From: an uncultured bacterium
GTDB taxonomy: Bacteria > Fidelibacterota > Marinisomatia > Marinisomatales > UBA1611
Direction of reading: 5' to 3'
DNA: 64,000 nucleotides
Assembly: GCA_965660855.1 (NCBI GenBank)
Contig: CBFIBM010000005.1
Coordinates: 65,056 to 129,055 of the forward strand
A program made the position numbers and the translations under genes. The notes under the pieces were generated by a model. The model was given only the letters and a program-made list of their open reading frames with translations, was not told the DNA's origin and ran no database searches. Positions 17,545 through 64,000 of this stretch are shown here, one piece after another (the stretch's first letter is position 1; every line of letters begins with the position of its first letter).

Positions 17545-18732
17545 TTAATTCTCCAATACTTTTAATGCCGGTAATTGGTTACCACTTAATAATTCTAGAG
17601 ATGCTCCGCCACCGGTTGAAACATGAGTCATCTCATCCAATAAATTAAAATCTTCTAATGCAGAGGCAGTATCACCTCCACCTACAATAACTTTAGATCC
17701 ATTTGCTATACAACTGACAAGGTGAATTCCCATTTCTCTTGTCCCACTTTCAAATCCTTGTTTCTCAAAAACTCCCATTGGACCGTTCCAAACTATAGTT
17801 TTAGATTTGCCAAGAATACCATTATATCTAGCTAATGTGTCAGGTCCTATATCAAGACCCATGAGGTCTTTTGGTACAGAGTTAATTTTATAAGGACCCT
17901 TGGGATTATTATCCTCGAGGCATTGACCACAGATAACATCTTCTGGTAATAGTAATTTCACATTTTGCACTCTCGCTTTATTAATAATATTTTTTGCAGT
18001 TTGAATCATGCTTTCATCAACCAATGATCCGCCGATCTCTTTTCCTTTAGCTTTCAGAAATGTAAATGCCATACCACCACCAATAATGATGTAATCAGCC
18101 TTAGATAAAAATTGATCAATTAAACCTAATTTTGTATCTATTTTTGCACCTCCAAGTATGAGTGTGAGAGGTTTCTTGGGATTGGTCATAAATCTTTGTA
18201 AAAAATTTAATTCTTTATCCATTAACCAACCTATACCATAATGTTTAAAGGAGCGAACAACCCCAACATTCGAGGCATGTGCTCTATGGGCGGTACCAAA
18301 TGCATCATTTATATAGATTTGTCCGTGCCTGGCTAATTGGGTAGAGAATATTGGATCATTCGATTTTTCAGCAGAGTTAAATCTTAGATTTTCTAAAAGA
18401 TGAATTTCTCCAGGCTTTAAACTTAAGGAAGTATCAATCGAATCGGTCGAGATTGGATCATTTGAAAATTTGATTGGCATTTCTAATAAACTTGCAAGTT
18501 CTTCACCAACTGCCATCAAGCTAAGATTTTCATTCTTTATTCCAGTAGGTCTCCCCAAATGAGACATTAAAGTAATAGATGCACCTGACTCTATACATGT
18601 TAATATTGTTGGCAATGCAGATTTAATTCTAAAGTTATTTGTGACCTTCTGATTCGCAACCGGTACATTGAAATCAACGCGCATCAGAATATTTTTTCCT
18701 TCTAAATCAAATGCTTTTAATGTTTTTATCAT
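17545..18732 (-). CDS. pgk: Phosphoglycerate kinase
   Basis: RVDFNVP, SHLGRP, LLENLRF, NDAFGTAHRAHAS, WNGPMGVFE, HVSTGGGASLE. Confidence 0.98.
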   Translation of the reverse strand: MIKTLKAFDLEGKNILMRVDFNVPVANQKVTNNFRIKSALPTILTCIESGASITLMSHLGRPTGIKNENLSLMAVGEELASLLEMPIKFSNDPISTDSIDTSLSLKPGEIHLLENLRFNSAEKSNDPIFSTQLARHGQIYINDAFGTAHRAHASNVGVVRSFKHYGIGWLMDKELNFLQRFMTNPKKPLTLILGGAKIDTKLGLIDQFLSKADYIIIGGGMAFTFLKAKGKEIGGSLVDESMIQTAKNIINKARVQNVKLLLPEDVICGQCLEDNNPKGPYKINSVPKDLMGLDIGPDTLARYNGILGKSKTIVWNGPMGVFEKQGFESGTREMGIHLVSCIANGSKVIVGGGDTASALEDFNLLDEMTHVSTGGGASLELLSGNQLPALKVLEN

Positions 18733-48940: not shown

Positions 48941-49207
48941 ATGAAAAAAAATAAACTCTTAGATGAGCATCGCCATAAAATTAATTTGATTGATTATGAA
49001 ATAGTATCACTTATTGATGAAAGAATGAATATCGCATCAAATATTGGAAAAATTAAACAAAAAGATAATATCCGTATTTTTAATAAAAATAGAGAGAGAG
49101 AAATTCTTAATAATCTTAAACAAAAATCTAAATATTTATCTTACAACGAAATTGAAAAAATATATGAAATAATTTTTGAAATTTCAAAAAAAAATCAATT
49201 AAAATAA
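48941..49207 (+). CDS. Monofunctional chorismate mutase (AroQ/CM_2 type)
   Basis: L.EHR.KIN.ID.EIV.LIDER...A..IGKIK, RE.EIL, I...IFEISK..Q; adjacent to the aromatic operon. Confidence 0.88.
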   Translation: MKKNKLLDEHRHKINLIDYEIVSLIDERMNIASNIGKIKQKDNIRIFNKNREREILNNLKQKSKYLSYNEIEKIYEIIFEISKKNQLK

Positions 49208-49249
49208 TTATATTGTAGCCAAATAAGATTATTTTCATTAATATTTTAT

Positions 49250-49321
49250 ATGTATCCAAGGAAAAATTTAAATATTTATATAAGCTGGTTTTGGTATTAT
49301 AACCTAAAGGGGGCTCTTTAG
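49250..49321 (+). CDS. Aromatic-amino-acid leader peptide (23 aa, MYPRKNLNIYISWFWYYNLKGAL)
   Basis: Not in the ORF track. ATG at 49250, TGG TTT TGG TAT TAT at 49286-49300, TAG ending at 49321. It lies directly upstream of a terminator and trpE. Confidence 0.88.
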   Translation: MYPRKNLNIYISWFWYYNLKGAL

Positions 49322-49361
49322 GATAGTATTAAAATATACTTGAATAAAATTTACGAACCCC
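49303..49361 (+). promoter_or_regulatory. Attenuator switch: protector hairpin and alternative antiterminator pairing
   Basis: Perfect 7-bp stem CCTAAAG (49303-49309)/CTTTAGG (49316-49322). The enclosed GGGGCTC can alternatively pair with GAACCCC (49355-49361), the 5' arm of the terminator. Confidence 0.75.
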
Positions 49362-49384
49362 GAATCATTTCGGGGTTTTTTTTT
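49356..49384 (+). terminator. Attenuator terminator upstream of trpE
   Basis: AACCCCGAA-TCAT-TTCGGGGTT, with a continuous T9 run (49376-49384) ending 3 nt before the trpE ATG. Confidence 0.92.
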
Positions 49385-49387
49385 ATT

Positions 49388-50872
49388 ATGAATAAAAATC
49401 AATTAACATTTAAAAAATTTAAAGAATTAGCTAAAAAGCACAAGATAGTTCCTGTTTTCAAGCAAGTACTTTCAGATTTGCTTACTCCTGTTGCCGCTTG
49501 GGCACATCTTTGCAATCATTCTAAATATGGATTTATTTTGGAGTCTGTTGAAAAAGGAAATAATTATTCAAGGTTCTCTTATTTAGGTATTGATCCAAAA
49601 ACAATTATTAAGTTGGAGAATAATGTAACATTAATTGAAACAAATGGTAACCAATCAATAATAAAGGAACCGTTCATAGAGGTTATCGATAAAATTCAAA
49701 AAGAATATCAATATAAAAAGATAGAAGACCTACCTCCTTTTACAGGAGGATTAATTGGATATTTAAATTATGAAATGGTTGAACACTTCGATAATATTCC
49801 AATAAATAGTAAATCTGAATTAAACCTCCCAAAATCATTATTTATGCTTTTTGAGGATATTATAATTTTTGATCATTTAAAAGGGACTTCTATCATTTTA
49901 TCAAATATAATAATAGATAAAAAAGAAACATTATTAAATCAGTACGACCATGCCCATGAAAAGATTGATAGAATTGGTGAAAAGCTTCATTCCAGGATTG
50001 AATATCAAACACCTCGATATAACTCTAATCAAGAACTAAGTACCAACCTAAATGAAAAAGATTTTAAAAATATAGTTTTAAAAGCTAAATCATACATTGA
50101 AGAAGGGGAAATTTTTCAAGTTGTTCTTAGTAGAAAGTTTAAACAAAAAATTAACTCAGAACCTGTTACTATTTACCGTGCTCTTCGAACAATCAATCCA
50201 TCTCCCTACATGTTTCATTTGAAAGTAAATGATTTCGATATAATTGGAGCATCTCCAGAACTTATGGTCAAGATAAAGGATAGTGATATTGAGATTAGAC
50301 CTATTGCTGGGACTAGACCAAGAGGTAAGAATAAAAAGGAAGACGATTTGCTAAGTAAACAATTAATTTCAGATAAAAAAGAATTAGCTGAGCATTTAAT
50401 GTTATTAGATCTAGGTCGTAATGATGTTGGTAAAGTTTCTGAATTTGGATCTGTTAAAGTAACTGAATCAATGAAAATTGAAAAATATTCACATGTAATG
50501 CATATTGTATCTAGTATAAAAGGAAAGTTAGATAAAGATATTAGATCCTTAGATGCTCTTATCAGTGGTTTCCCAGCTGGAACTGTAACTGGTGCTCCAA
50601 AAATAAGAGCTATGGAGATTATCAATGAATTAGAGAATGAAACACGTGATATTTACTCTGGTGCTGTATGTTTTATTGATTTTAACAATAATATTAATTC
50701 TTGTATCGCAATAAGGACACTAATAATAAAAGATAAGAATGCTCACTTTCAAGCTGGAGCTGGTATAGTTTATGACTCAGATCCTTCATCAGAATATGAA
50801 GAGACACTGAATAAAGCAAAAGCAATTATCAATGCAATTAAATTTGCAGAAAATGGTTTAAGTAAAAAATGA
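49388..50872 (+). CDS. trpE: Anthranilate synthase component I
   Basis: DLLTPV, ILES, NPSPYM, GASPE, PIAGTRPRG, AEHLMLLDLGRND, GAPKIRAM. Start moved to ATG 49388 because the TTG at 49340 would read through the terminator. Confidence 0.96.
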   Translation: MNKNQLTFKKFKELAKKHKIVPVFKQVLSDLLTPVAAWAHLCNHSKYGFILESVEKGNNYSRFSYLGIDPKTIIKLENNVTLIETNGNQSIIKEPFIEVIDKIQKEYQYKKIEDLPPFTGGLIGYLNYEMVEHFDNIPINSKSELNLPKSLFMLFEDIIIFDHLKGTSIILSNIIIDKKETLLNQYDHAHEKIDRIGEKLHSRIEYQTPRYNSNQELSTNLNEKDFKNIVLKAKSYIEEGEIFQVVLSRKFKQKINSEPVTIYRALRTINPSPYMFHLKVNDFDIIGASPELMVKIKDSDIEIRPIAGTRPRGKNKKEDDLLSKQLISDKKELAEHLMLLDLGRNDVGKVSEFGSVKVTESMKIEKYSHVMHIVSSIKGKLDKDIRSLDALISGFPAGTVTGAPKIRAMEIINELENETRDIYSGAVCFIDFNNNINSCIAIRTLIIKDKNAHFQAGAGIVYDSDPSSEYEETLNKAKAIINAIKFAENGLSKK

Positions 50873-51447
50873 TTTTGATAATAGATAACTACGATTCTTT
50901 TACATATAATATTGTCCAATATGTTGGTGTAATTGACCAAAATTTATTAGTGAAGAAGAATGATAAAATTTCATGTAATGATATTAACACATTAAAACCA
51001 ACTCATATTATTATTTCACCTGGTCCTGGAAAACCTGAGAGCGCTGGAATAGCAATAGAATTAATTATTAAGTTTGGAAATCAGATTCCAATTTTTGGTA
51101 TATGCCTTGGGCATCAAGCAATAACTGTTGCCTATGGTGGAGTAGTCAAAAAATCAAATGAAATTGTCCATGGGAAAGTATCTACTATTTTTCATAATAA
51201 TTCTTCTAAAATCTATGATGGAATAAAAACAAAATTCATGGCAACAAGGTATCATTCACTCATAGCTGAAAAAGAGACCTTACCGGAAAATTTAATAATT
51301 TCATCTCATTTAAAAGATGGAACTATAATGGGAATTGAGCATCAAGATCACCCCGTATATGGAGTCCAATTTCACCCAGAATCATTTTCTACTAAAATTG
51401 GATTTCAACTTATAAAAAACTTTCTAAGTTTAAAAAAAATAAAATGA
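50869..51447 (+). CDS. trpG: Anthranilate synthase component II (glutamine amidotransferase)
   Basis: IDNYDSFTYN, SPGPG.P, GICLGHQ, RYHSL, QFHPES. Confidence 0.96.
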   Translation: MILIIDNYDSFTYNIVQYVGVIDQNLLVKKNDKISCNDINTLKPTHIIISPGPGKPESAGIAIELIIKFGNQIPIFGICLGHQAITVAYGGVVKKSNEIVHGKVSTIFHNNSSKIYDGIKTKFMATRYHSLIAEKETLPENLIISSHLKDGTIMGIEHQDHPVYGVQFHPESFSTKIGFQLIKNFLSLKKIK

Positions 51448-52439
51448 AATACTTTTTAGAAAAAATTTTACAACATCAGGATTTAACAATGTCAGAATCT
51501 TATAAATTGATGTTTTCTTTAATGTCAGGGAATAATGATGATATTGAGATTGCTTCCTTTTTAGTTGCATTTCGATCAAAAGGTGAAACCGTTGATGAGA
51601 TAACTGGTTTTGTTAGAGCTATGAGAGAAAAAATGATAAAACTTCATACCCATTCTCCAGCTATTGATATGTGTGGTACTGGTGGGGATGCCTCAGGGAC
51701 TTTTAATATCTCTACGGCTGCATCATTTATTACTGCTGGTGCTGGAGTAAAAGTAGCAAAACATGGAAACCGTTCAATGTCATCAAAGTCAGGTTCAGCT
51801 GATGTGCTTCAAGCCTTAGGAATAAGTATAAATCTTGATAAAGAAACTACATCAAGAAATATTGAAGAAATTGGCCTAGGCTTTATCTTTGCTCCTGATT
51901 ACCATCCCGCAATGAGATATGCAATAAAAGCGAGAAAATCATTAGGAATTCGCACAGTGTTTAACTTGTTGGGGCCTTTATGCAACCCTGCCGAAGTTCA
52001 ATCTCAAGCGACTGGTATTTTCAATCCAAAAATGACAAACAAAGTTGCATTAGTATTGAAGAAGTTAGGTTCGAAAAATATTATGGTTTTCTCTGGACTA
52101 GATGGACTAGATGAGATTTCAACCATTGAAGAAACAAAAATAAGTGAAATGAAAAATAGAGGTGAAATATTAACTTATAATTTTTCTTATAAAGAGCTAC
52201 GATTAAAACAATCAAAAATCAAAGATCTCATCGGTGGGTCACCTAAAAAAAATGCAACAATAATTAAGAATATACTTGAAGGTGAAAAAGGTCCGAAACG
52301 AGACATTACCTTGTTAAATGCTGCAGCAGGAATTTTTGTTGGGGAAAAAAATATCAGCTTTGAAGAAGCATTCCATAAGGCAATTGATTCATTGGATTCT
52401 TTATCTGCATTAAGTGTATTAAAGAGATTACAGTCATGA
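51444..52439 (+). CDS. trpD: Anthranilate phosphoribosyltransferase
   Basis: D.CGTGGD, NIST, KHGNRS.SS.SGSAD, RTVFNLLGPL.NPA, GLDE. Confidence 0.97.
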   Translation: MKYFLEKILQHQDLTMSESYKLMFSLMSGNNDDIEIASFLVAFRSKGETVDEITGFVRAMREKMIKLHTHSPAIDMCGTGGDASGTFNISTAASFITAGAGVKVAKHGNRSMSSKSGSADVLQALGISINLDKETTSRNIEEIGLGFIFAPDYHPAMRYAIKARKSLGIRTVFNLLGPLCNPAEVQSQATGIFNPKMTNKVALVLKKLGSKNIMVFSGLDGLDEISTIEETKISEMKNRGEILTYNFSYKELRLKQSKIKDLIGGSPKKNATIIKNILEGEKGPKRDITLLNAAAGIFVGEKNISFEEAFHKAIDSLDSLSALSVLKRLQS

Positions 52440-53197
52440 ATATTTTAGAAGAAATTATTGAAAATAAAAAAATAGAAATACAAAAATCTAGATTAGAAAT
52501 TTTACAAAAAAGAACTGATTACCGATCTCTATGTAACGCATTATTAAAATATGAATTAACTATAATAGCTGAAATCAAAATTAAATCTCCTAGTGAGGGT
52601 ATAATTAATAGTTCATTAGACCTTATCCAAATTGCAAAAGATTATGAGTCTGCTGGCGCTGATGCTTTGTCCATATTAACCGATAAGAAGTATTTTGGAG
52701 GTTCAATAGAAGTTTTAAAAGAAATAAGAGAATCGATAAACATTCCCGTTTTAAGAAAAGATTTTATAATAGATAAAAAACAAATAATTGAAGCATCTAA
52801 TGTTGGTGCTGATGCTTTCTTACTTATTGCTGATGCTCTTCCAATCGATAAAACTATAGAACTTTATAATTTTGGTATAAAGATTGGTTTAGATGTTCTT
52901 TTAGAGTTTCATAATAGAAGAAATTTAAAAAAAATTTTAAAATTACAACCTAGTATTATTGGTGTTAATTCCAGAAATTTAAGTAAAATGACTACCAGCA
53001 AGAAACACTTCAATAAAATGATTAACCTCCTTCCAACTGGATTAATAAAAGTCGCTGAGAGCGGAATAAAAACAACGGAGGATTTAAGGTATATTTCAAA
53101 ATTAGGTTATAACTCTGCATTAATTGGTACATCTCTAATGAAAACAGATAGTCCGGGTAAAGCTTTAGAAAAGTTAATAAGGTTCAGTAGGTCATGA
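52436..53197 (+). CDS. trpC: Indole-3-glycerol phosphate synthase
   Basis: IIAEIK.KSPSEG, LSILTD..YFGG, LRKDFI, GVNSRNL, VAESGI, LIGTSLM. Confidence 0.96.
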   Translation: MNILEEIIENKKIEIQKSRLEILQKRTDYRSLCNALLKYELTIIAEIKIKSPSEGIINSSLDLIQIAKDYESAGADALSILTDKKYFGGSIEVLKEIRESINIPVLRKDFIIDKKQIIEASNVGADAFLLIADALPIDKTIELYNFGIKIGLDVLLEFHNRRNLKKILKLQPSIIGVNSRNLSKMTTSKKHFNKMINLLPTGLIKVAESGIKTTEDLRYISKLGYNSALIGTSLMKTDSPGKALEKLIRFSRS

Positions 53198-53832
53198 TAC
53201 CAGTTAAGATTTGTGGAATCAAAAATATTAAGGATGCTGAAGCAGCAGTAAAACATGGTGCTAAAGCAATTGGGTTTATTTTTTTCAACAAAAGTCCCAG
53301 GTTTATATCCATTAATAATTCTATTTCAATAGCAAATTCTTTACCTAAGTCAATTAAAAAAATTGGTGTTTTTGTTAATTCTCCTCAGGACATTATTAAT
53401 TCTATTATTAAAAAAGTTAATTTGGATCTAATTCAATTACATGGAGATGAACCTGATGAATTTTGCAATTTTTTCGATATTCCAGTTATTAAAGCTTTCC
53501 AAGTTAAATCAATAAAAGATTTACAAAAAATTAAGTTATATAAAAACATCTCAGCCATATTATTGGATAATCATAATGAAAATCTTTATGGTGGGACTGG
53601 TAAAAGCTTTGACTGGAAACTATTGAATAATGTTGAATTTAAATTTCCAATTATCCTATCAGGCGGGCTAAACTCTTCAAACATCAATAATGCAATAAAT
53701 CTTGTAAAACCTAATGCAGTTGATGTTAATAGTGGAGTAGAAAATAGCCCTGGAATTAAATCTCCAAAAAAAATTAAATCTCTTTTTGACAAATTACTAT
53801 TAACTAAAACAACTGGATATTATTTTGAATAA
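53194..53832 (+). CDS. trpF: Phosphoribosylanthranilate isomerase
   Basis: [44 protein letters not shown]. Confidence 0.96.
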
Positions 53833-55033
53833 TTTTTTTGAAAAATATAATTTCCCCGATGAAAAAGGACATTTTGAAAAATATGGTGGGAAATACGTAC
53901 CTGAGACTCTTATTCCAGTTTTAAATGAACTTGAAAGTGAATATTTAAAAGCAAAAAAAGATATTTCTTTCAAAATTGAGCTTGCAGATTTATTAAAAAA
54001 CTATAGTGGCAGAAAAACGCCATTATATTTTGCTAAAAATATAAGCACGGAATTAGGGTTTAACATTTGGCTAAAAAGAGAAGATCTTAACCATACAGGT
54101 GCGCACAAAATTAATAGTTCATTAGGACAAATATTGCTCGCAAAAAGAATGAATAAGAAACGAATTATAGCAGAAACAGGAGCTGGGCAACATGGAGTAG
54201 CCACAGCGACAGCCGCAGCTTTATTTGGTTTAAAATGTATTATTTATATGGGAAAAGAAGATATCAAGAGACAAAAACTAAATGTTTTCAGAATGCATAT
54301 TATGGGAGCAGAAATTCGTGAAGTCAATAGCGGGAGTGCAACACTCAAAGATGCAACCAATGAGGCAATTAGAGATTGGGTCAGTAATGCTGATTCTACA
54401 TATTATATTATCGGGTCGACAGTAGGCCCTCATCCCTATCCTATGATTGTTAGAGATTTTCAATCTATTATTGGAGAGGAAACAAAATATCAGTTTCATA
54501 AGCAAACACAATTGAAACTTCCAGATAGATTGATTGCATGTGTTGGCGGTGGATCAAATGCATTAGGTTTATTTTACCCATTTTTGAAAGATAATGTAAA
54601 AATTTGTGGTGTTGAGGCTTCAGGTAAAGGATTAAATACAAATCAACATGCAGCTACATTGACAAAAGGTACCTTTGGGGTTCTTCATGGAGCAGCTAGT
54701 ATAGTTTTACAGAACCATGATGGACAAATTAAATTACCTCACTCTGTATCAGCAGGTCTTGATTATCCTGGTGTTGGTCCAGAACATAGTTTTCTAAAAT
54801 ATAAAAATAGAATTAAATATTATTCCGCAACTGATAGAGAGGCACTTAATGCATTCATCTGGCTCTCAAAAGAAGAAGGAATTATCCCTGCTCTAGAAAC
54901 TTCTCATGCCTTAGCATTTCTCAGAAAACAAAATAATGATATCTCTAGAAATGAAAATGTAATCGTCAATCTGTCTGGTAGAGGCGATAAAGATGTAAAC
55001 ACTGTAGCAAAAGCTTTGGATTTTCAAATATGA
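53825..55033 (+). CDS. trpB: Tryptophan synthase beta chain
   Basis: [53 protein letters not shown]. Confidence 0.98.
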
Positions 55034-55797
55034 ATAGAATCTTAGCATTATTTTCTAGAAAAGAAAAACGTGTAATCCCATTCATAACAGCCGGTTACCC
55101 CAATATAGATAGTACCGTAGATCTTGTTCTTGCAGCTGAAAATGCTGGTGCATCTATGATAGAAATCGGTATGCCATTTTCTGATCCTCAAGCAGATGGA
55201 CCGATTATTCAATATGCCAATGAAGTAGCTCTTGAAAATGGAATTACAATAAAAAAAATATTTAATCAAGTAAAATATATCAGGTTAAAGTCAAACATTC
55301 CTATTGCGCTGATGGGATATTACAATCCTATATTAAGAATGGGGCTTGAAAAATTTACGGAAAATTGTGTTGCTTCTGGAGTAGATGGTTTAATTCTACC
55401 CGATTTACCTTTTGATGAGGCAGGTCCATTTTGCAAAATATTAAAGCAAAATAATATTTGTCCAATTTTATTGGTAGCACCTAACACCTCAAATAAAAGG
55501 ATACTAAAAATATCAAAGTTAGCTGATGGTTTAATTTATGCTGTAAGCATTCTTGGAATTACAGGTGATGCTTTAAATGATAAAACATATTTAAAAACAT
55601 ATTTAAAAAGAATTCGCAAACACAGTTCTTCATCATTCATTGTTGGTTTTGGAATTAAATCAAATGATGATGTTATTTGGTTTAATCAATATTCTGATGG
55701 AGCTGTTGTTGGAAGTGTAATAATGAAAGAATTAAAGAATTCTAAAAATCCAAAAAATACAATCAAGGTATTAATTGAAAATTTAAGGAGAGAATAA
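55030..55797 (+). CDS. trpA: Tryptophan synthase alpha chain
   Basis: [47 protein letters not shown]. Confidence 0.97.
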
Positions 55798-56369
55798 TGA
55801 GAACTATAGGAATTCAAGGAGGTAAAGGAAGTTTTTCTGAAAATGCTGCTCAAAAATTTATTATTGATCATGGATTAAAAGATACAAGCATTAAATATCT
55901 TATTTCCTCTGAAATTGTTTTATCATCAGTTGAAAATGGCTCAGTAGATTTTGGAGTAATTGCTATGGAGAATGCTCAAGGAGGTGTAGTCATTGAAAGT
56001 GTAAAAGCTCTATCTAGGCATAATTGTGATATAATTGAAATGTTTCATATTCCTATAAAACAAAATTTGATAGGGTTAAAAAATACAAAAGTAGGTGATA
56101 TAACAGAGATCCATTCTCATCAACAAGCATTAAAACAATGTAAAGATTATTTAAGTGATAACTTTTGGACAAGACCTCTAATAGAAGAGGATGATACTGC
56201 TGAGGCTGCAAGAAGACTATCTGAAGGCAAGTTTCCAAAAACTGCAGCCGTAATTGCTAATGAATATTGTGCAGAACTTTATGGATTAGAAATACTTCAA
56301 TCTAGTATACACGATCTAAAAAATAACCTTACATTATTTTTAGGTGTTAGGAAGTTGGATTTAACATGA
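55797..56369 (+). CDS. pheA: Prephenate (or arogenate) dehydratase, catalytic domain only
   Basis: IQGGKGSFSE.AA, G...MEN...G.V, SHQQALKQC, DTAEAA, I.D..NN.T.F. The protein stops before any ACT domain. Confidence 0.88.
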   Translation: MRTIGIQGGKGSFSENAAQKFIIDHGLKDTSIKYLISSEIVLSSVENGSVDFGVIAMENAQGGVVIESVKALSRHNCDIIEMFHIPIKQNLIGLKNTKVGDITEIHSHQQALKQCKDYLSDNFWTRPLIEEDDTAEAARRLSEGKFPKTAAVIANEYCAELYGLEILQSSIHDLKNNLTLFLGVRKLDLT

Positions 56370-57112
56370 ATAGTGTTGGTATTATTGGATTTGGAAGGTT
56401 TGGGAAAGTGCTAGCGCATATTTTACAAAAAGGTTTTGAAGTAAATATTTACGATATTAACCATAATGAAAGTTTTGGAAATATTAATTTTGTATCCTCA
56501 AAAAATATAATAAAAGAAAAAACAATTTTTGTATCCGTTCCCATCAGAGAGTTCGAAAAGGTAATAAATGATATTTCACCCAATATTAATGAGGGGACAA
56601 CAATTATTGATGTATGCTCTGTTAAGAAATATCCAATTGATATAATGAAAAAACTTTTGCCAGAAAATATCGGATTCATTGGAACGCACCCAATGTTTGG
56701 TCCAGATTCTTACGAAGTTAATAAAAACTTGAAAATGGTAATGCATAAATCACATGATTATAATTTATGTTATAATTTTTGGAAAACATTTTTTAAGGAT
56801 CAAAATATACAAATTATTGAAATGGAGCCAGATCAGCATGATAGGCTAGCTGCTCAGACTCAAGGTGTCACACATTTTTTAGGTAGAATTTTAGAAGAAT
56901 ATGGCATAAATAAAACAAAAATTGATACTCAAGGTTTTAGAGACCTCTTGGATTTAGTTGATCAAACATGCAATGATTCATGGGAGCTTTATTCAGATTT
57001 ACAGCAATATAACCCATATACTAAAAATATGATATCAAAATTGAAAAAATCTGTTAACCATTTAGAAAAGCAGCTAAAGGATACAAATAGTAATGAAATG
57101 GAAATTAAATAG
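56366..57112 (+). CDS. tyrA: Prephenate/arogenate dehydrogenase (TyrA family)
   Basis: GIIGFGRFG, DVCSVK, THPMFGP, HDRLAA.TQ..TH. Confidence 0.9.
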   Translation: MNSVGIIGFGRFGKVLAHILQKGFEVNIYDINHNESFGNINFVSSKNIIKEKTIFVSVPIREFEKVINDISPNINEGTTIIDVCSVKKYPIDIMKKLLPENIGFIGTHPMFGPDSYEVNKNLKMVMHKSHDYNLCYNFWKTFFKDQNIQIIEMEPDQHDRLAAQTQGVTHFLGRILEEYGINKTKIDTQGFRDLLDLVDQTCNDSWELYSDLQQYNPYTKNMISKLKKSVNHLEKQLKDTNSNEMEIK

Positions 57113-58445
57113 TTGGCGAAATAAAAGAATTAAGCATATGCCCACATACCCAGATAATTCAAAATTATCCATTGTAGAAAAAACATTGAAAACCTTCCCG
57201 CCTTTAGTTTTTGCAGGTGAGGTAAGATCTTTAAAAAAAAAATTGAGTGAAATCTCCGAAGGAAATGGTTTTTTACTCCAAGGTGGAGATTGTGCAGAGA
57301 GCTTTTCAGAATTTAATGCAGATAATATTCGTGATACTTTTAGAGTAACATTACAAATGGCGACTATTTTAACATCTGTAATAAAAATGCCTGTGGTAAA
57401 AATTGGAAGAATAGCTGGTCAATTTGCGAAGCCTAGATCTTCCACACATGAAACTAAAAATGGACATACTTTTCCTAGCTATGCAGGAGATATCATTAAT
57501 GATATAAAATTTGAAAAAGAAAAACGAATACCGGATCCAGAAAGAATGTTAAAAGCTTATTCTCAGGCTGCCTCTACTTTAAATTTATTGAGAGCTTTTG
57601 CAGAAGGTGGCTATGCAGATTTGAAACATGTTCAATCATGGAACATGGGTTTTGTTAAAAATGGTCCTCAGGGTGATCGATACAGACACCTTGCTGAAAA
57701 AATTCAAGAGAATTTAAGTTTTATGGAAGCTCTTGGAATAAATTCAAGTAATACTCCACAATTAAAACAAGTTCAGTATTATACCAGCCACGAATCCCTT
57801 CTTTTACCATATGAAGAAGCATTGACTCGAATAGACTCTACGACTGGTAAGGTTTATAATACGTCTGCACATTTTTTATGGATAGGTGATCGAACTAGGT
57901 TTAAAGGTAGTGCGCATATTGAATTTTGTAAAGGAATCGAAAACCCATTAGGAATTAAATGTGGTCCTACCTTAAAACCAGATGATTTAATTGAATTAAT
58001 AGATATTTTAAACCCAAAAAATGAATCAGGAAAAATTACATTAATAACTCGATTTGGTTCACAAAATATTGATCGTTACTTACCTAAACTTATAAGAAAA
58101 ATTGAAGAGCATGATAAATCAGTTGTCTGGTCTTGCGACCCCATGCATGGCAATACAATAAAAAATAAAAATGGAATTAAGACAAGACCTTTTGAAAATA
58201 TAATTGATGAAGTAATTAAAAATATTCAGATACATAAATCTGAGAATTCTAGAGCAAATGGTATTCATCTTGAAATGACTGGTCAAAATATTACTGAATG
58301 CACAGGTAGTCTTGAAAAAATATCAGACTCCAACTTGTCGGATAGATACAGAACGCATTGCGACCCTCGATTAAATGCCAATCAAGCTATTGAGCTTGCC
58401 TTCTTAATTTCTAATGAACTTAAAAGTAATTTAAATGAAAATTAA
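57093..58445 (+). CDS. Class II (plant/actinobacterial-type) DAHP synthase
   Basis: PPLVFAGE, LLQGGDCAESF, GRIAGQFAKPRS, SHESLLL.YE, WIGDRTR, CDPMHGNT, HLEMTG..ITEC, CDPRLN. Confidence 0.96.
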   Translation: MKWKLNSWRNKRIKHMPTYPDNSKLSIVEKTLKTFPPLVFAGEVRSLKKKLSEISEGNGFLLQGGDCAESFSEFNADNIRDTFRVTLQMATILTSVIKMPVVKIGRIAGQFAKPRSSTHETKNGHTFPSYAGDIINDIKFEKEKRIPDPERMLKAYSQAASTLNLLRAFAEGGYADLKHVQSWNMGFVKNGPQGDRYRHLAEKIQENLSFMEALGINSSNTPQLKQVQYYTSHESLLLPYEEALTRIDSTTGKVYNTSAHFLWIGDRTRFKGSAHIEFCKGIENPLGIKCGPTLKPDDLIELIDILNPKNESGKITLITRFGSQNIDRYLPKLIRKIEEHDKSVVWSCDPMHGNTIKNKNGIKTRPFENIIDEVIKNIQIHKSENSRANGIHLEMTGQNITECTGSLEKISDSNLSDRYRTHCDPRLNANQAIELAFLISNELKSNLNEN

Positions 58446-59685
58446 TGGATCCATTACATTCCCTGGAGATAAATCTATATCTCATAGAGCTATTATTTTT
58501 GCTTCTTTATGTAATGGAAAATCAATCATAAAAAATTTATCAGATGGTAAAGATGTACAATCAACAATTAAATGTTTACAGCAATGTGGAATTAAAATTG
58601 AGCAACATAAAAATATTGGTACAATTGTTTATGGTTCAGAATTAAAAGATCCTAAAGAAAAACTCGATTGCGGAAATTCAGGTACAACAACTAGGTTACT
58701 CATTGGCTTATTGGCTGGGAAAGGAATTAATGCAACATTTATTGGAGATAAATCATTATCCAAAAGACCAATGAATAGAGTGTTAATACCTTTAAAAAAA
58801 ATGGGGCTAAACTACAACTCTAATAATGGAAAATTACCTGTGAAAATTTACAAAAGTATTTTATCCAATGAGAGTCACGTATTAGAAATTTCTAGTGCAC
58901 AAATTAAATCAGCTATTTTACTAGCAAGTTTAAATTCTAAGGGAGTAACTTTAATTTCTGAACCAAATAAATCAAGAGATCACACAGAAATTTTATTGAA
59001 ATATTTTGGTTCAAACATATCTCTAAAGAATCGAAAAATAACTTTTGAAAAAGTTTATGAAAGGTTTAAACCTTTTAATATTAAAATACCTGGAGATCCT
59101 TCCTCTGCATCATTTTTTGGTGCTGCGGCGGCTATTCTTCCAAATTCAAAATTACATTTAAAATCAATTTTACTTAACCCCACAAGAATTGGATTTTTTG
59201 AAATTCTTAGTACTATGGGTGCAAAAGTAAGTATTAAAAAGAAATCAACTATTCTTGGAGAAGTAATTGGAGATATTACAATACAATATTTCCAATTACG
59301 TTCAATAAATATTAGGAAATCACAAATCCCAACTGTTATCGACGAAATTCCAATTCTTGCCCTCATAGCAACCCAAGCAAAAGGTAGAACAGTTGTCTCA
59401 GGAGCTAATGAACTTAGATATAAAGAATGTGACAGAATTCATGCAATCTGCACTAACTTAAAAAATATGGGAGCTAATATTACTGAAAAAGATGATGGTT
59501 TCATCATTATAGGTCCTACAAAATTAAAAGCAACAAATATTAAAACTTATGATGATCATAGAATAGCTATGTCTTTCACCATTGCAAACTTATTATTAGG
59601 TAAACAGAATAAATTAGATAACCTAGATTGCGTTTCGATCTCCTACCCTAACTTTTATAAAATTTTAAATTCAATATCCTCATGA
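58435..59685 (+). CDS. aroA: 3-phosphoshikimate 1-carboxyvinyltransferase (EPSP synthase, class II-like)
   Basis: PGDKSISHRA, DCGNSGTT.R, SAQIKSA, SRDHTE, NPTR, IDEIP, ELR.KE.DRI, DHRIAM. Confidence 0.97.
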   Translation: MKINGSITFPGDKSISHRAIIFASLCNGKSIIKNLSDGKDVQSTIKCLQQCGIKIEQHKNIGTIVYGSELKDPKEKLDCGNSGTTTRLLIGLLAGKGINATFIGDKSLSKRPMNRVLIPLKKMGLNYNSNNGKLPVKIYKSILSNESHVLEISSAQIKSAILLASLNSKGVTLISEPNKSRDHTEILLKYFGSNISLKNRKITFEKVYERFKPFNIKIPGDPSSASFFGAAAAILPNSKLHLKSILLNPTRIGFFEILSTMGAKVSIKKKSTILGEVIGDITIQYFQLRSINIRKSQIPTVIDEIPILALIATQAKGRTVVSGANELRYKECDRIHAICTNLKNMGANITEKDDGFIIIGPTKLKATNIKTYDDHRIAMSFTIANLLLGKQNKLDNLDCVSISYPNFYKILNSISS

Positions 59686-60482
59686 AAAAATATGCCGTAA
59701 TAGGAGATCCAATAGAACATAGCTTAAGTCCGTTTCTTCATAGATATATTTATAAGAAAATTGGAATTAAAGCAGAGTATCAAAGAGTAAACGTCAAATC
59801 TTTAAAACTCGAAGAATTTGTTTTAACCAATTCCTTAAATGGTTTTAATGTAACAATTCCTCATAAAATTCATATTATAAATTATTTGGATGAAATAGAT
59901 GAAACTGCCAAAATACTAAATTCTGTAAATTGTGTTTTTAATAACAAAGGATATAATACAGACTGGCTAGGACTAAAAAGAGCACTTCATAAAAATAACC
60001 TAATTTTAGAAAACAAAGATTGTCTTATCCTTGGCTCTGGAGGGGTTTCTAGAGCAATCATTTATGCATTAATTAAAGAAAATATAAATACTATATCAAT
60101 ATTAAATAGAAATTTAACTCAAAAAGAGGAGTTAGAAATTTGGATCCATAAACTTTTACCTAAAAATAAACCTAATAATAAGCCAAACGTGATTATAAAT
60201 TGTACACCAGTTGGTATGCGGCCAATATCTGATAAAATTCCATTTGATTTAAATATATTTTCAGATGATCAATTAATCATTGATACAATATATAACCCAT
60301 ATGAAACTCAACTTATCAAAACTGCAAAAAATAGTGGTGCTAAAATACTAAATGGATTAGATATGTTTATTTTCCAGGCAATTGAGACTGTGAATATTTG
60401 GATGGGAGAAGATATAACTGAGCAGCTAAACTTTAATAATTTAAAAAAGGAGTTGGAATCGCAATTATGCTTTCAAAATTAA
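59682..60482 (+). CDS. aroE: Shikimate dehydrogenase
   Basis: IGDPIEHSLSP, NVTIPHK, GYNTD, GSGG, INCTPVGM, D.IYNP.ET, GLDMFIFQA. Confidence 0.95.
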   Translation: MKKYAVIGDPIEHSLSPFLHRYIYKKIGIKAEYQRVNVKSLKLEEFVLTNSLNGFNVTIPHKIHIINYLDEIDETAKILNSVNCVFNNKGYNTDWLGLKRALHKNNLILENKDCLILGSGGVSRAIIYALIKENINTISILNRNLTQKEELEIWIHKLLPKNKPNNKPNVIINCTPVGMRPISDKIPFDLNIFSDDQLIIDTIYNPYETQLIKTAKNSGAKILNGLDMFIFQAIETVNIWMGEDITEQLNFNNLKKELESQLCFQN

Positions 60483-61627
60483 CATTTTTAACCTCTGGAG
60501 AATCACATGGAAAAGGACTACTTGGTATAATAGACGGTGTACCATACGGATTAGAATTAACTGAGGACTACATAAGATACCATTTATCAAGAAGACAAAA
60601 GGGTTATGGCCGGGGTGGTCGTATGAAAATTGAAAAAGATTATGCTGAAATCTATTCCGGTATAAGACATGGGTATACCTTAGGCTCCCCAATAGGCTTA
60701 TTAATAAAAAATAAAGACTGGGAGAATTGGAAAAAAAAAATGGCAATAGAAAAACTAGATAGTCCAATTAAAAAAGTTACTTTACCCCGTCCCGGTCATG
60801 CAGATCTTGCAGGAGTTTTAAAATATGGTTTTGATGATATTCGAAATGTACTAGAACGCTCCAGTGCTCGAGAAACTACAATGAGAGTTGCATTGGGGTC
60901 TATCTGTAGGAGGTTGCTCGAAGAATTAGGCATCCATGTTGCTAGTAGAGTCGTACAAATACATGATTTAATTGATGTGAGTGACATCCCTAATGGAATA
61001 TCAACAATAGAATTAAATAAAATTGCTGATAAATCTGAAGTGAGATGTTTAGATAAAGATATTGAGTTAAAAATGATGGAAAAAATTGATGAAGCTAAAT
61101 CATCTGGTGATTCTGTTGGTGGTATTTTTGAAATTATTGCAACTGGGTTACCGTATGGCTTGGGATCATACACCCAATGGGATAAAAAATTGCAGGCGAA
61201 AATTGCAGCACTCTTAATGAGTGTTAATGCTTATAAAGCTTTTGAAATTGGTAGTGGTTTTCATAGTGGTACACAATTTGGAAGTGAAATCCATGATGAA
61301 ATTGGATGGGATGGTAAAAATTTTACGCGCTTCTCAAACAATGCGGGTGGTATTGAAGGTGGAATGTCGAACGCTCAACCTCTAATTTTAAGATTAGCTA
61401 TGAAACCAATACCTACTTTAATAAAATCTCTAAGATCTATAGATATAAAAACTAAAATTCCTAAAGATGCTCACAAAGAACGTACTGATTCATGTGCGGT
61501 TCCAGCTGCCTCAATAATCGCTGAATCAATGCTATGTTTTGTTCTGGCAGATACATTATTAGATAAGTTTGGTGGTGATTCAATTGAACAATTAAAAAAG
61601 CATATGAAAGCAACTGCTACTTATTAA
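60467..61627 (+). CDS. aroC: Chorismate synthase
   Basis: TSGESHG, RRQ.GYGRGGRM, PRPGHAD, LERSSARET, NNAGGIEGG, MKPIPTL. Confidence 0.97.
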   Translation: MLSKLTFLTSGESHGKGLLGIIDGVPYGLELTEDYIRYHLSRRQKGYGRGGRMKIEKDYAEIYSGIRHGYTLGSPIGLLIKNKDWENWKKKMAIEKLDSPIKKVTLPRPGHADLAGVLKYGFDDIRNVLERSSARETTMRVALGSICRRLLEELGIHVASRVVQIHDLIDVSDIPNGISTIELNKIADKSEVRCLDKDIELKMMEKIDEAKSSGDSVGGIFEIIATGLPYGLGSYTQWDKKLQAKIAALLMSVNAYKAFEIGSGFHSGTQFGSEIHDEIGWDGKNFTRFSNNAGGIEGGMSNAQPLILRLAMKPIPTLIKSLRSIDIKTKIPKDAHKERTDSCAVPAASIIAESMLCFVLADTLLDKFGGDSIEQLKKHMKATATY

Positions 61628-61628
61628 A

Positions 61629-62123
61629 ATGTATTATTTGACAGGTATGATGGGGACTGGAAAAACTACAATTGGAGAATTATTAGCTCTGAATCTAAAA
61701 CTTCCATTCACAGATTTAGATAAGAAAATTGAAGAAAAATGTAAAAGAACAATTGCTGATTTATTTTTGACAGAGAATGAAAATTATTTTAGAAAATTGG
61801 AGTCTAATACTTTACATGATTCATCCTTGTCTGGTGTTGTATCTTGCGGAGGTGGTATTTTAGAACTCAAAAGGAATTGTGATTATTTAATGGATGCTGG
61901 TATAGTAATTTTTCTACATACCTCAACTGATGAAATTTATAGAAGGATAATAAAATCTAATAGTAGACCTCTTTTGAATACTGCAAACAAAAAAAAAACT
62001 ATAGAAGCTATTTGGGAAAAAAGAAAAGAAAAGTACAATAAATATTGTCATTATAAAATTAAAACAGATAATAAAACTATTGATGATATAGTTGAAGAGA
62101 TAAAAACACATATAAAAAAATGA
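61629..62123 (+). CDS. aroK: Shikimate kinase
   Basis: GMMGTGKTT, DLD, FR.LE, SCGGG, RPLL. Confidence 0.95.
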   Translation: MYYLTGMMGTGKTTIGELLALNLKLPFTDLDKKIEEKCKRTIADLFLTENENYFRKLESNTLHDSSLSGVVSCGGGILELKRNCDYLMDAGIVIFLHTSTDEIYRRIIKSNSRPLLNTANKKKTIEAIWEKRKEKYNKYCHYKIKTDNKTIDDIVEEIKTHIKK

Positions 62124-63184
62124 AAACTATACATTTACCACTCAAAACAAATTCTTATAATATTTATATTGAAAATAATTTATTAAATAATTTGAAAAAG
62201 GTATTAAGGAACGATCCTATAGATAAAGTCTTAATTATTTCTCAATTTAATATAATGGAATTGTTTGGTTTTAAACTTATAAAATATTTAAAAATTTTAG
62301 AATATAAAGTTGAATATATTACCCTACCAATTGGAGAAGCTGCAAAAAGTATAAATGAATATAATAGAAGTATTGAGCAAATGATTGAACTTGATTGCGA
62401 TAGATCAACATTAATTTTTGCGCTTGGTGGAGGAGTTGTTGGAGATGTCGCAGGGTTTATCGCATCTACATTTATGCGAGGAATTTCATATTATCAAATA
62501 CCAACCACATTACTATCAATGGTGGATTCTTCCGTTGGTGGAAAAACAGGCTTAAATACACCATTAGGTAAAAATTTAATTGGTTCAATTTATCAACCTA
62601 GAGGGGTTATCATCGATCCTACCCTCTTAAATAGTTTACCAAAAGAAGAAATTAATTCAGGTTTAGGTGAAATAATAAAATATGGCGCAATTAGAGATTT
62701 AAATCTTTTAAAAAGCCTAAATTTATGGTTAGATGATATAAAAACTTTACCTTATGAAGAAGCAATCTATGATTGTCTTAAAATTAAAGCTGATATTGTT
62801 GCACAAGATGAAAAAGAAACTAGTATTAGAAAAATATTAAATTTTGGTCATACTATTGGACATGCTTTAGAATCTCATTTTGGATATAATAAATTAAAGC
62901 ATGGTGAAGCAGTCTCATATGGAATGCTTTGCTCAACTAAAATTTCTAAAGACTTAAATTATATATCTAAAAATGACGAACAATTTCTATCAGATTTGAT
63001 AAAAAAATTACCACTTCCTAATATAAATTCTCCAGATATAGAAACCCTATTTCCTTATATACTTAATGATAAGAAGGTCTTTGATGGTAAAATTCATTTT
63101 ATCTTATTAGAAAGATTAGGAAAAGCATTTATAAATACCAATGTGACAAAGGAGATAATAAAAAAATCTTTGAGGGCAATATGA
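62120..63184 (+). CDS. aroB: 3-dehydroquinate synthase
   Basis: GE..K, ALGGGVVGDVAGF, PTTLLSMVDSSVGGKTG, KNLIG, LNFGHTIGHA, HGEAV, DKK. Confidence 0.97.
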   Translation: MKTIHLPLKTNSYNIYIENNLLNNLKKVLRNDPIDKVLIISQFNIMELFGFKLIKYLKILEYKVEYITLPIGEAAKSINEYNRSIEQMIELDCDRSTLIFALGGGVVGDVAGFIASTFMRGISYYQIPTTLLSMVDSSVGGKTGLNTPLGKNLIGSIYQPRGVIIDPTLLNSLPKEEINSGLGEIIKYGAIRDLNLLKSLNLWLDDIKTLPYEEAIYDCLKIKADIVAQDEKETSIRKILNFGHTIGHALESHFGYNKLKHGEAVSYGMLCSTKISKDLNYISKNDEQFLSDLIKKLPLPNINSPDIETLFPYILNDKKVFDGKIHFILLERLGKAFINTNVTKEIIKKSLRAI

Positions 63185-63612
63185 AGAAATACTTAATTAT
63201 TAATGGTCCCAACCTAAATCTCCTAGGATCGAGAAATCCTGAAATATACGGGAGAGAAAGCCTTCAAGATATTGAAAAATGGCTAAATATAAAAATTAAT
63301 AATAAAGATGTAAAAATATATTGGTACCACTCAAATCATGAAGGCAAAATAATCGATAGAATTCAAAGGGCCACTAATGAGAAAATAAATGGTATAATAT
63401 TAAATGCTGGCGCGTTGACTCATTATTCATATGCAATACGTGATGCAATATCAGCTTTTAAATTACCAGTGGTAGAAGTTCACCTGAGCGATATTAATAA
63501 ACGCGAAAAGTTTAGAAGTATTTCAGTGATCAAAGATGTTTGTATCAAACAGATATCTGGGCTAGGAAAGAATAGTTATCTAGAGGGTTTTAAAATACTC
63601 GAATCACTTTAA
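63181..63612 (+). CDS. aroQ: Type II 3-dehydroquinate dehydratase
   Basis: INGPNLNLLG.R.PEIYG, SNHEG, NAGALTHYS, EVHLS...REKFR. Confidence 0.96.
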   Translation: MKKYLIINGPNLNLLGSRNPEIYGRESLQDIEKWLNIKINNKDVKIYWYHSNHEGKIIDRIQRATNEKINGIILNAGALTHYSYAIRDAISAFKLPVVEVHLSDINKREKFRSISVIKDVCIKQISGLGKNSYLEGFKILESL

Positions 63613-64000
63613 AAACAACATCTTCTTTGTTTCACTGGAGTATTCCGTTTTTATAGTATAGAAGTAAATTCCTGTTGAAACATCATCTCCAAATTCATTT
63701 GTCGCATCCCATTGGATTGAATGGCGTCCTGTAGACATACTCTTTCTAGTTAATGACTTTACATAATTACCTTTAAGATCATATATATTGATATTTACAT
63801 ATGAATCTTGAGAAAGTGAATATGAAATATTTGTTACAGGGTTAAATGGATTAGGGTAATTTTGATATAGCATAAATCCAGATGCAAGCAAATGGGAAGG
63901 TTTGGTTGACAATGTAATACATTCACCATTTAAAATTCCAGGAGTTGGGTTCGTAAAACAACCATTGCCATTTTCATCAAAACTCTGAGAAAGGGAAACA
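63604..64000 (-). CDS. C-terminal part of a secreted protein with a T9SS type-A/FlgD-Ig-like sorting domain (gene begins beyond the right edge)
   Basis: The frame stays open to the window edge (VSLSQSFDENGNGCFTNPTPGILNGEC...). It then reads LYQNYPNPFNP.T.I.Y...IYDLKG..V...G.H.I.WDA.N..G..VSTGIYFY...TKKMLFLK. PTPG..N resembles the end of a lamin-tail domain. Confidence 0.85.
   Translation of the reverse strand, partial: VSLSQSFDENGNGCFTNPTPGILNGECITLSTKPSHLLASGFMLYQNYPNPFNPVTNISYSLSQDSYVNINIYDLKGNYVKSLTRKSMSTGRHSIQWDATNEFGDDVSTGIYFYTIKTEYSSETKKMLFLK

Follow-up and report, generated by a model that had tools for sequence, protein, structure and literature searches.

A candidate leader-peptide attenuator with tryptophan, phenylalanine and tyrosine codons precedes a 16-gene aromatic operon in an uncultured Marinisomatales bacterium

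We analyzed a stretch of 64,000 nucleotides (nt), hereafter the window, from an uncultured bacterium of the order Marinisomatales, phylum Fidelibacterota (assembly GCA_965660855.1, contig CBFIBM010000005.1, positions 65,056 to 129,055). It carries a 16-gene operon, trpEGDCFBA-pheA-tyrA-DAHPS-aroAECKBQ, whose gene content predicts that it makes tryptophan (Trp, W), phenylalanine (Phe, F), tyrosine (Tyr, Y) and their common precursor chorismate. Taking the evidence as a whole, the region in front of trpE, the first gene, is best explained as a leader-peptide attenuator of this operon that is opened by a shortage of Trp and likely of Phe or Tyr, a reading that we consider probable. Its parts differ in strength. 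We are confident that the element is a ribosome-mediated leader-peptide transcription attenuator, real and conserved. That the attenuator of the window reads Phe and/or Tyr as well as Trp is held with less assurance, as the likelier case.

The element shows the features of its class: end-product codons in a short open reading frame (ORF), an intrinsic terminator before the first gene, an alternative antiterminator (weak in the window) and a stall geometry, the latter seen in model folds only. Textbook aromatic attenuators read one amino acid each, whereas the single leader described here appears to integrate all the end products of a complete pathway, in a host that belongs to an abundant, uncultured phylum of the ocean.

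A leader ORF, a terminator and an alternative pairing before trpE

A first-pass annotation of the window had described, ahead of trpE, a 23-codon ORF with five consecutive W-F-W-Y-Y codons, a CCTAAAG/CTTTAGG hairpin, a run of G and a terminator with nine T that ends 3 nt before trpE, and all of these are present in the sequence (Table 1). The leader ORF runs from the ATG at 49250 to the TAG at 49319-49321. The two arms of the inverted repeat (CCTAAAG, 49303-49309, and CTTTAGG, 49316-49322) pair into a hairpin (-7.0 kcal/mol) that holds the G-run, five G at 49309-49313, in and beside its loop. The terminator hairpin, GAACCCCGAA-TCAT-TTCGGGGTTT, spans 49355-49378 and has a stem of 10 bp with 5 G:C pairs. 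Terminator-like sites number 2 in 1.1 kb, for 0.2 expected, the second being the same hairpin on the other strand. The 153-nt leader region folds with a minimum free energy of -38 kcal/mol, compared to -25.4 +/- 3.4 in 200 shuffles (z -3.7), none of which was as good. The ATG of trpE (49388) lies 3 nt past the T-run, leaving no space for a Shine-Dalgarno sequence between them, and the TrpE proteins of relatives align to it from residue 1.

Table 1. Features of the trpE leader region and of the operon, in window coordinates
Feature	Position	Strand	Basis
Chorismate mutase (AroQ type), 88 amino acids, directly upstream, outside the attenuated unit	48941..49207	+	Pfam CM_2, E 3.2e-18
TAATAT, -10-like box, ends 5 nt before the leader ATG	49239..49244	+	Sequence
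Leader ORF, 23 codons + TAG: MYPRKNLNIYISWFWYYNLKGAL	49250..49321	+	Sequence; homologous ORFs at 92/99 trpE loci
Long stem predicted in untranslated RNA, -21.6 kcal/mol, with the CCTAAAG/CTTTAGG hairpin as its tip	49269..49353	+	Folds
Putative regulatory codons TGG TTT TGG TAT TAT = W13 F14 W15 Y16 Y17	49286..49300	+	Sequence; modelled antiterminator probability peaks there
Predicted antiterminator, 5' strand: GGGG 49310-13, TC 49315-16, TTTA 49317-20	49310..49320	+	Constrained folds; homologous strand co-varies with its partner, 17 families
Predicted antiterminator, 3' strand: TAAA 49345-48 + GAACCCC 49355-61	49345..49361	+	Folds
Intrinsic terminator GAACCCCGAA / TTCGGGGTTT, loop TCAT, T9 at 49376-49384	49355..49384	+	Terminator search; -15.1 kcal/mol
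trpE, first structural gene	49388..50872	+	Pfam Chorismate_bind + Anth_synt_I_N; orthologues 53-61% identity
15 further genes: trpG, D, C, F, B, A, pheA, tyrA, class II DAHP synthase, aroA, aroE, aroC, aroK, aroB, aroQ	50869..63612	+	Pfam

The predicted antiterminator of the window consists of GGGG:CCCC and UC:GA with a UUUA:UAAA extension. Its 5' strand lies at the end of the leader ORF, within the final four sense codons and the TAG, and GAACCCC of its 3' strand makes up 7 of the 10 nt of the 5' arm of the terminator. In the mechanism that we propose, transcription would start just before or at the leader ATG. When charged tRNAs are plentiful, the ribosome would reach the TAG and cover the G-run and the bases that follow it; the terminator would then form and RNA polymerase would halt 3-8 nt before trpE. 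A ribosome held at W13, F14, W15, Y16 or Y17 would instead leave the G-run free to pair with the CCCC of the terminator 5' arm, which would block the terminator and let the operon be transcribed. With three amino acids represented among the stall codons, the device would work as an OR gate: too little charged tRNA for Trp would open it, and so, most likely, would too little for Phe and/or Tyr.

Model folds of the window fit this scheme. All fold results assume that the ribosome covers 12 nt past the first A-site base, an assumption to be counted among the reservations discussed below. The modelled probability that C49358-61 pair upstream is 0.08 and 0.10 with the A site at I9 and Y10, 0.67 and 0.57 at I11 and S12, 0.59 and 0.61 at W13 and F14, 1.00 at both W15 and Y16, and 0.74 at Y17, and it drops to 0.06-0.15 from N18 to the stop (0.06 at the stop itself). 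The first-pass annotation had cast the G-run as the partner that blocks the terminator, and had a ribosome at the stop codon cover it and so allow termination. Both proposals hold up in the folds, with pairing of 0.59-1.00 at W13-Y17 and of 0.06-0.15 beyond, the former also agreeing with the strand co-variation described in the next section. The upstream edge of the permissive zone is due to the long stem 49269-49353, which is predicted in untranslated RNA of the window genome only. This stem would also hide the G-run, hence the two edges of the zone (codons 11-17), and, in the models, it acts as an anti-antiterminator specific to the lineage of the window. The CCTAAAG/CTTTAGG hairpin at its tip had been read as a part of the switch; it turns out to be a local feature, as 11 of 14 related leaders fold without a ribosome straight into the antiterminator and a competing structure displaces it in the remaining 3.

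The aromatic codon run is, by itself, not rare in the AT-rich DNA of the window. Across the six frames, where F accounts for 7.8% and Y for 4.6% of the codons, there are 20 runs of at least five W/F/Y codons. Six of them have at least two W, compared to 0-1 per mononucleotide shuffle (20 shuffles); the other five lie at 18085, 46311, 28964, 21821 and 6842 (minus strand), in stop-to-stop frames of 15-34 codons. We also scanned the whole assembly (2.09 Mb, 84% complete) for a strong terminator paired with a short ORF in which 4 or more out of 6 codons are aromatic. This gave 29 candidates, of which 6 are uncovered by stop-to-stop frames of more than 150 codons. Among these 6, the trpE leader is the only one directly before a recognisable gene, and one other has a 103-codon frame, unsearched, 135 nt downstream. 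This genome-wide scan thus found no second aromatic leader of such a kind in the assembly. It is the context and the conservation, and not the aromatic run alone, that set the trpE leader above chance.

The position of the TAATAT box in front of the leader ATG suggests that the leader mRNA may itself be leaderless, or nearly so. Among 88 distinct leaders of the phylum, 54 have a -10-like box (at most one mismatch) 4-11 nt before the in-frame start, mostly at 8 nt, for a background of 7.4% of positions, and 44 have TTGnnn 16-19 nt upstream of this box as well. Inspection of the window leader showed no TTG 16-19 nt upstream of its TAATAT box, and this box is best described as a putative promoter element.

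Conservation of the leader and of the alternative pairing

The phylum was sampled with 384 genomes at least 70% complete, 102 of which have a TrpE match at E <= 1e-100. We analyzed 99 trpE loci from 97 genomes and left out those of G017, G201, G377, G119 and G043, where the match is cut or partial. A leader was scored when a short ORF with a Trp-containing aromatic cluster was followed by a terminator within 110 nt. The comparison of upstream regions that the first-pass annotation had put forward comes out in its favour: the leader ORF and the terminator are present at 92 of the 99 trpE loci. Two of the seven missing loci have less than 120 nt of upstream DNA and two belong to family f18, one of which (G065) has, by eye, a 12-codon ORF with F-N-Y-W; the other three are discussed below with the points that count against our reading. 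Leader lengths range from 15 to 44 codons and there is no shared peptide sequence outside the cluster. A TrpE search of the wider genome contigs only returned 3 distant, unrelated genomes (41-45% identity).

The alternative pairing was studied in related leaders with constrained folds, using transcripts that end before the 3' arm of the terminator and a ribosome placed at the cluster or at the stop codon. With the ribosome on cluster codons, the region of the G-run pairs with the terminator 5' arm in each of the 14 leaders that made up the first set. Moving the ribosome to the stop codon removes the antiterminator helix in 9 of them and leaves 3-6 arm bases paired in the other 5. For 41 of 58 leaders, no more than 5 in 100 dinucleotide shuffles reach the energy of the stalled state; the count of paired terminator-arm bases did not separate real leaders from shuffles, whereas the energies did. 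In the leaders compared, the stop codon always lies within the 5' strand of the antiterminator or a few bases after it, so that a terminating ribosome must cover this strand.

The two strands also co-vary. The duplex energy of a 5' strand with its own 3' strand averages -16.4 kcal/mol, compared to -10.3 kcal/mol with strands of other families, and none of 40000 one-per-family permutations was as good (44 strand pairs, 17 families). These energies allow for bulges and replaced a test in a gap-free register, to which we return below. Finally, in 90 distinct leaders we called permissive the sites whose antiterminator probability reaches half of its maximum or more. Such sites hold 95% of the cluster W codons and, in the leaders of operons that combine trp with other aromatic genes, 79% of the cluster F/Y codons, compared to 12% for the stop codon.

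Leader codons follow the content of the operon

Operons were scored by tblastn with the proteins of the window. We call supraoperons those with any phe, tyr or aro gene on the same strand downstream, and trp-only the others; the 22 loci truncated by a contig end were excluded from this comparison. The cluster has at least two F+Y codons in 56 of the 57 leaders of supraoperons, and in 52 of the 57 it contains all three of W, F and Y. In the 13 trp-only leaders it always has at most one F+Y codon, and 10 have none (WWW or WW). On the TrpE tree, the class of the operon changed 4 times independently, and the leader follows in 3.9 of the 4 changes on average and never goes in the opposite direction. 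The 57 supraoperon leaders comprise 41 distinct cluster sequences. Their clusters use both synonyms of Tyr (98 TAT, 32 TAC) and of Phe (85 TTT, 13 TTC), which argues for selection on the codons rather than on a fixed RNA sequence; together with the variety of clusters, it indicates that selection acts on which codons are present.

The split operons provide a second line of evidence, independent of these counts. Family f27 has trp-only operons with WWW leaders, and its aro/tyr operon, which lies elsewhere in the genome, is preceded by a leader with F and Y and without W in 6 of 6 genomes with upstream DNA (L184 in G049, L189 in G161, L181 in G071, L182 in G086, L194 in G111 and L183 in G089). 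Five of these leaders have a terminator (YFFYYFYF, YFFFYFYF, FYYTLYFYGY and, twice, YTTYYYF), and none was detected for that of the remaining genome (FYFYYF). We found no F/Y leader before the aro operon in f25 (3 genomes), where the operon opens with chorismate mutase close behind another ORF, nor in f19, nor in G169, G372 or G005, the latter having only 338 nt upstream, filled by another ORF. Overall, the comparative link supports, short of proof, that these leaders may sense several amino acids. The three-way OR gate suggested by the first-pass annotation is therefore upheld in part: the idea that the Phe and Tyr codons count is supported by the match between leader and operon content and by the F/Y-only leaders of f27, while the response to each amino acid is something that we infer.

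Some operons with the common aro genes, where tblastn did not find pheA and tyrA, have leaders that still bear F/Y codons, such as YYNWNWCF, WWYNY and YWFWWRY. They are found at L172 (G290), at L165 and L180 (G306), and at L131, L101 and L135 (family f26).

A broader reading of these patterns is tentative, and we put it at slightly less than even. The leader would be a true three-input OR gate, and the leader peptides of the phylum would be modular sensors rebuilt when operons fuse or split: WWW for trp-only operons, F/Y-only for aro/tyr operons, and W+F+Y for the fused 16-gene operon, the window adding a two-edged permissive zone that matches its five aromatic codons. If so, the codon make-up of a leader would show which amino acids control the operon, giving a simple rule for predicting regulation in genomes of bacteria that cannot be cultured. 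With split and fused operons side by side, the phylum offers a natural experiment on the joint evolution of leader peptides and operon structure. The value of the finding lies in its breadth and testability rather than in surprise.

Points against the attenuator and alternative explanations

Several observations, besides the footprint assumed for the ribosome, weigh against our reading. The antiterminator of the window is weak, with mainly 4 G:C and 2 further pairs and a duplex energy of -8.4 kcal/mol, the weakest of the set; 74% of the strands of other families bind the 5' strand of the window as well as its own 3' strand does. Its stalled-state energy, -11.0, was reached by 18 of 100 shuffles, and the terminator (-15.1 kcal/mol) is stronger than the antiterminator. 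Hence, of the ribosome-constrained fold that the first-pass annotation had suggested, the stall geometry fits W13-Y17 and the strength of the pairing falls short. Its expectation of co-varying stems is likewise only partly borne out: the permutations of duplex energies favour it, and two other analyses do not. RNAalifold gave 0 consensus pairs for 34 truncated leaders aligned with MAFFT, because the alignment sets GGGG and GGGT runs out of register, and the gap-free register test, which used the G- and C-runs as anchors and one sequence from each family, was not significant (4.63 own vs 3.85 cross pairs of 8; 685 of 5000 permutations as good). There is no leader at three of the missing loci, all in family f17, where trpE lies directly behind another gene (G219, G340 and G192). 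Finally, of the sequencing runs labelled as RNA, 6 held small shares of a 3-kb stretch, and the contigs of 4 cover none of 49204-49809, although parts of trpE, of trpG and of the gene for chorismate mutase are covered.

The three leaderless genomes (loci L097, L159 and L098 in G219, G340 and G192, respectively) belong to one genus, lack both leader and terminator, and have directly before trpE a gene that looks by eye like a cation-efflux gene; the operon of G192 is cut by the end of the contig. Their sister genomes G121 and G164 retain a leader with FWWY.

The sensing of Phe and Tyr faces further objections, and these bear on the best placed of the alternatives, which we nevertheless judge unlikely: a Trp-only attenuator that depends on its two TGG codons alone. 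The Phe and Tyr codons would then be passengers, which come cheaply in AT-rich DNA or do no more than slow the ribosome. One TGG is nearly invariant in an alignment of 14 leaders, TTT and TAT are common words in this DNA (see the codon shares above), and the F/Y codons past the last W sit at the edge of the permissive zone. The comparative link has just 4 independent contrasts (sign test p 0.125), and counts such as 56/57 are inflated by relatedness. Some full supraoperons have only 2 F/Y codons in their leaders: WKWYF (f12), WWWTYF (G162) and FWWY (G121 and G164). In the one tested mixed aromatic leader, aroR of Corynebacterium glutamicum, Tyr supply had no effect according to the summary given in PMC11802643. 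Against this alternative, F and Y are absent beside W in 10 of 13 trp-only leaders and single in the other 3, including that of the AT-rich G005 (WFWRS), yet number at least two in 56 of the 57 supraoperon leaders. In some supraoperon leaders a single W is joined by five or six F/Y codons (WGFYFYFSY, YYYFWF), F/Y-only leaders precede the split-off aro/tyr operons, and both synonymous codons of F and of Y are used.

It is very improbable that the region is not sensed by ribosomes at all, being instead a switch that binds a ligand or a protein, or the terminator of the chorismate mutase gene, with an ORF that arose by chance. Translation of the leader is a prediction, and the best Rfam match of the window, the trpB motif RF04312 (32.4 bits, E 0.023), is to a family that its describers, in the parts of PMC11109978 that concern it, report from Firmicutes and Fusobacteria and for which they do not decide between a riboswitch, a protein site and an attenuator. 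With a gathering score of 59 for that family, this match falls short, and 20 related leader loci have no match to this or to any other Rfam family at E <= 0.01. A frame from ATG to stop with an aromatic cluster persists at 92 of 99 loci even though its nucleotides vary, and the stop codon is always placed in or just past the antiterminator 5' strand. A search for the gene of the TRAP protein (Pfam PF02081) gave 0 matches in the 84%-complete assembly, whereas the control match in Bacillus subtilis was found. The simpler idea that the terminator is the mere end of the chorismate mutase gene is rejected, because in f12 and f22, where this gene sits elsewhere in the operon, the leader and the terminator precede trpE too.

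Least credible of all is that the aromatic peptide is itself functional, as a small hydrophobic protein or as a TnaC-like nascent peptide that arrests the ribosome on a free amino acid: aromatic-rich nascent chains can interact with the ribosome exit tunnel, but the peptides share no sequence outside the cluster, vary in length as described above, and have W, F and Y in free order (41 clusters among 57), a pattern that fits the counting of codons and not a defined peptide.

Comparison with known systems

No Rfam family reached its gathering score in 1.1 kb of the window, which had 22 matches at E <= 10. The covariance models of the classical leaders were far from it: Trp_leader (RF00513) scored 19.2 bits (E 0.56), for a gathering score of 41, and Phe_leader (RF01859) 21.7 bits (E 0.7), for a gathering score of 55. 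In logic, the window element resembles trpL of Escherichia coli and Salmonella. Both have a short ORF with Trp codons upstream of trpE and a terminator directly before the operon; in both the antiterminator shares bases with the terminator 5' arm, and a stalled ribosome leads (in the window, would lead) to read-through and a terminating one to termination. E. coli trpL has tandem Trp codons. The window leader has no homology to it in sequence or structure, its stall cluster also has Phe and Tyr codons, its antiterminator 5' strand falls within the ORF, stop codon included, and its operon encodes the whole aromatic pathway and not only trp. A helix of the 1:2 type, for pausing or anti-antitermination, is predicted in the window and not in most of its relatives. 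The pheL-pheA and pheM-pheST leaders of E. coli resemble the window in that a run of Phe codons in a leader ORF is followed by a terminator, with the difference that they read one amino acid only.

Leaders that carry codons for several end products, so that a shortage of any of them relieves termination, are known from ilvGMEDA and thr in E. coli. They follow the same logic as that proposed here, for different amino acids and a different pathway. Another multivalent leader, as far as the account in PMC11857589 goes, is that of ilvBNC in C. glutamicum. The nearest published aromatic case that we found is the aroR leader of C. glutamicum, with Phe-Tyr-Phe codons upstream of aroF, which responds to Phe limitation and not to Tyr (PMC11802643, summarising Neshat et al. 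2014). As summarised there, it too combines codons for more than one aromatic amino acid, and the gene that it attenuates, for DAHP synthase, belongs to the common pathway, a likeness of logic only: aroR lacks Trp codons, controls aroF and not a trp-phe-tyr-aro supraoperon, and comes from a different phylum. The Bacteroid-trp motif (RF01692), presented in the sections of Weinberg et al. 2010 (PMC2864571) that deal with it as a cis-regulatory RNA upstream of trp genes, resembles the window element in its position and comes from a related phylum of the FCB group; it gave no match at E <= 10 in the 1.1 kb of the window, nor at E <= 0.01 in the 20 related loci. Our literature search, with much of the older comparative literature beyond its reach, returned no paper on a Trp/Phe/Tyr leader or on any attenuator in this phylum. 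The principle of leaders with mixed codons is already established, and the W/F/Y version varies the textbook trp attenuator in a new way.

The operon and its neighbours

Pfam assigns all 16 genes of the operon as well as the chorismate mutase upstream. The 15 genes past trpE mostly overlap or abut, with spacings of -16 to +5 nt. The prephenate dehydratase pheA (55797-56369) encodes 190 amino acids filled by the PDT domain only, and Pfam found no ACT regulatory domain in it. Feedback control by Phe may therefore be missing at the level of this enzyme, and with the usual allosteric domain lacking from the PheA of this phylum the attenuator may be a main control point.

In the window (57093-58445) and in its near relatives, the slot of the DAHP synthase is occupied by a class II enzyme. 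In many other families, by eye and not by Pfam, it holds an enzyme of about 340 amino acids that resembles class I-beta, in the gaps from tyrA or trpA to aroA (L090, L091, L131 and L140). Unrelated ORFs of 453 and 369 amino acids are inserted between the DAHP synthase and aroA in L090 (G084) and L086 (G032), respectively. Past the operon, an ORF on the minus strand (63604-63999) runs off the end of the window; the end of its sequence resembles what we take to be a C-terminal sorting domain of type IX secretion.

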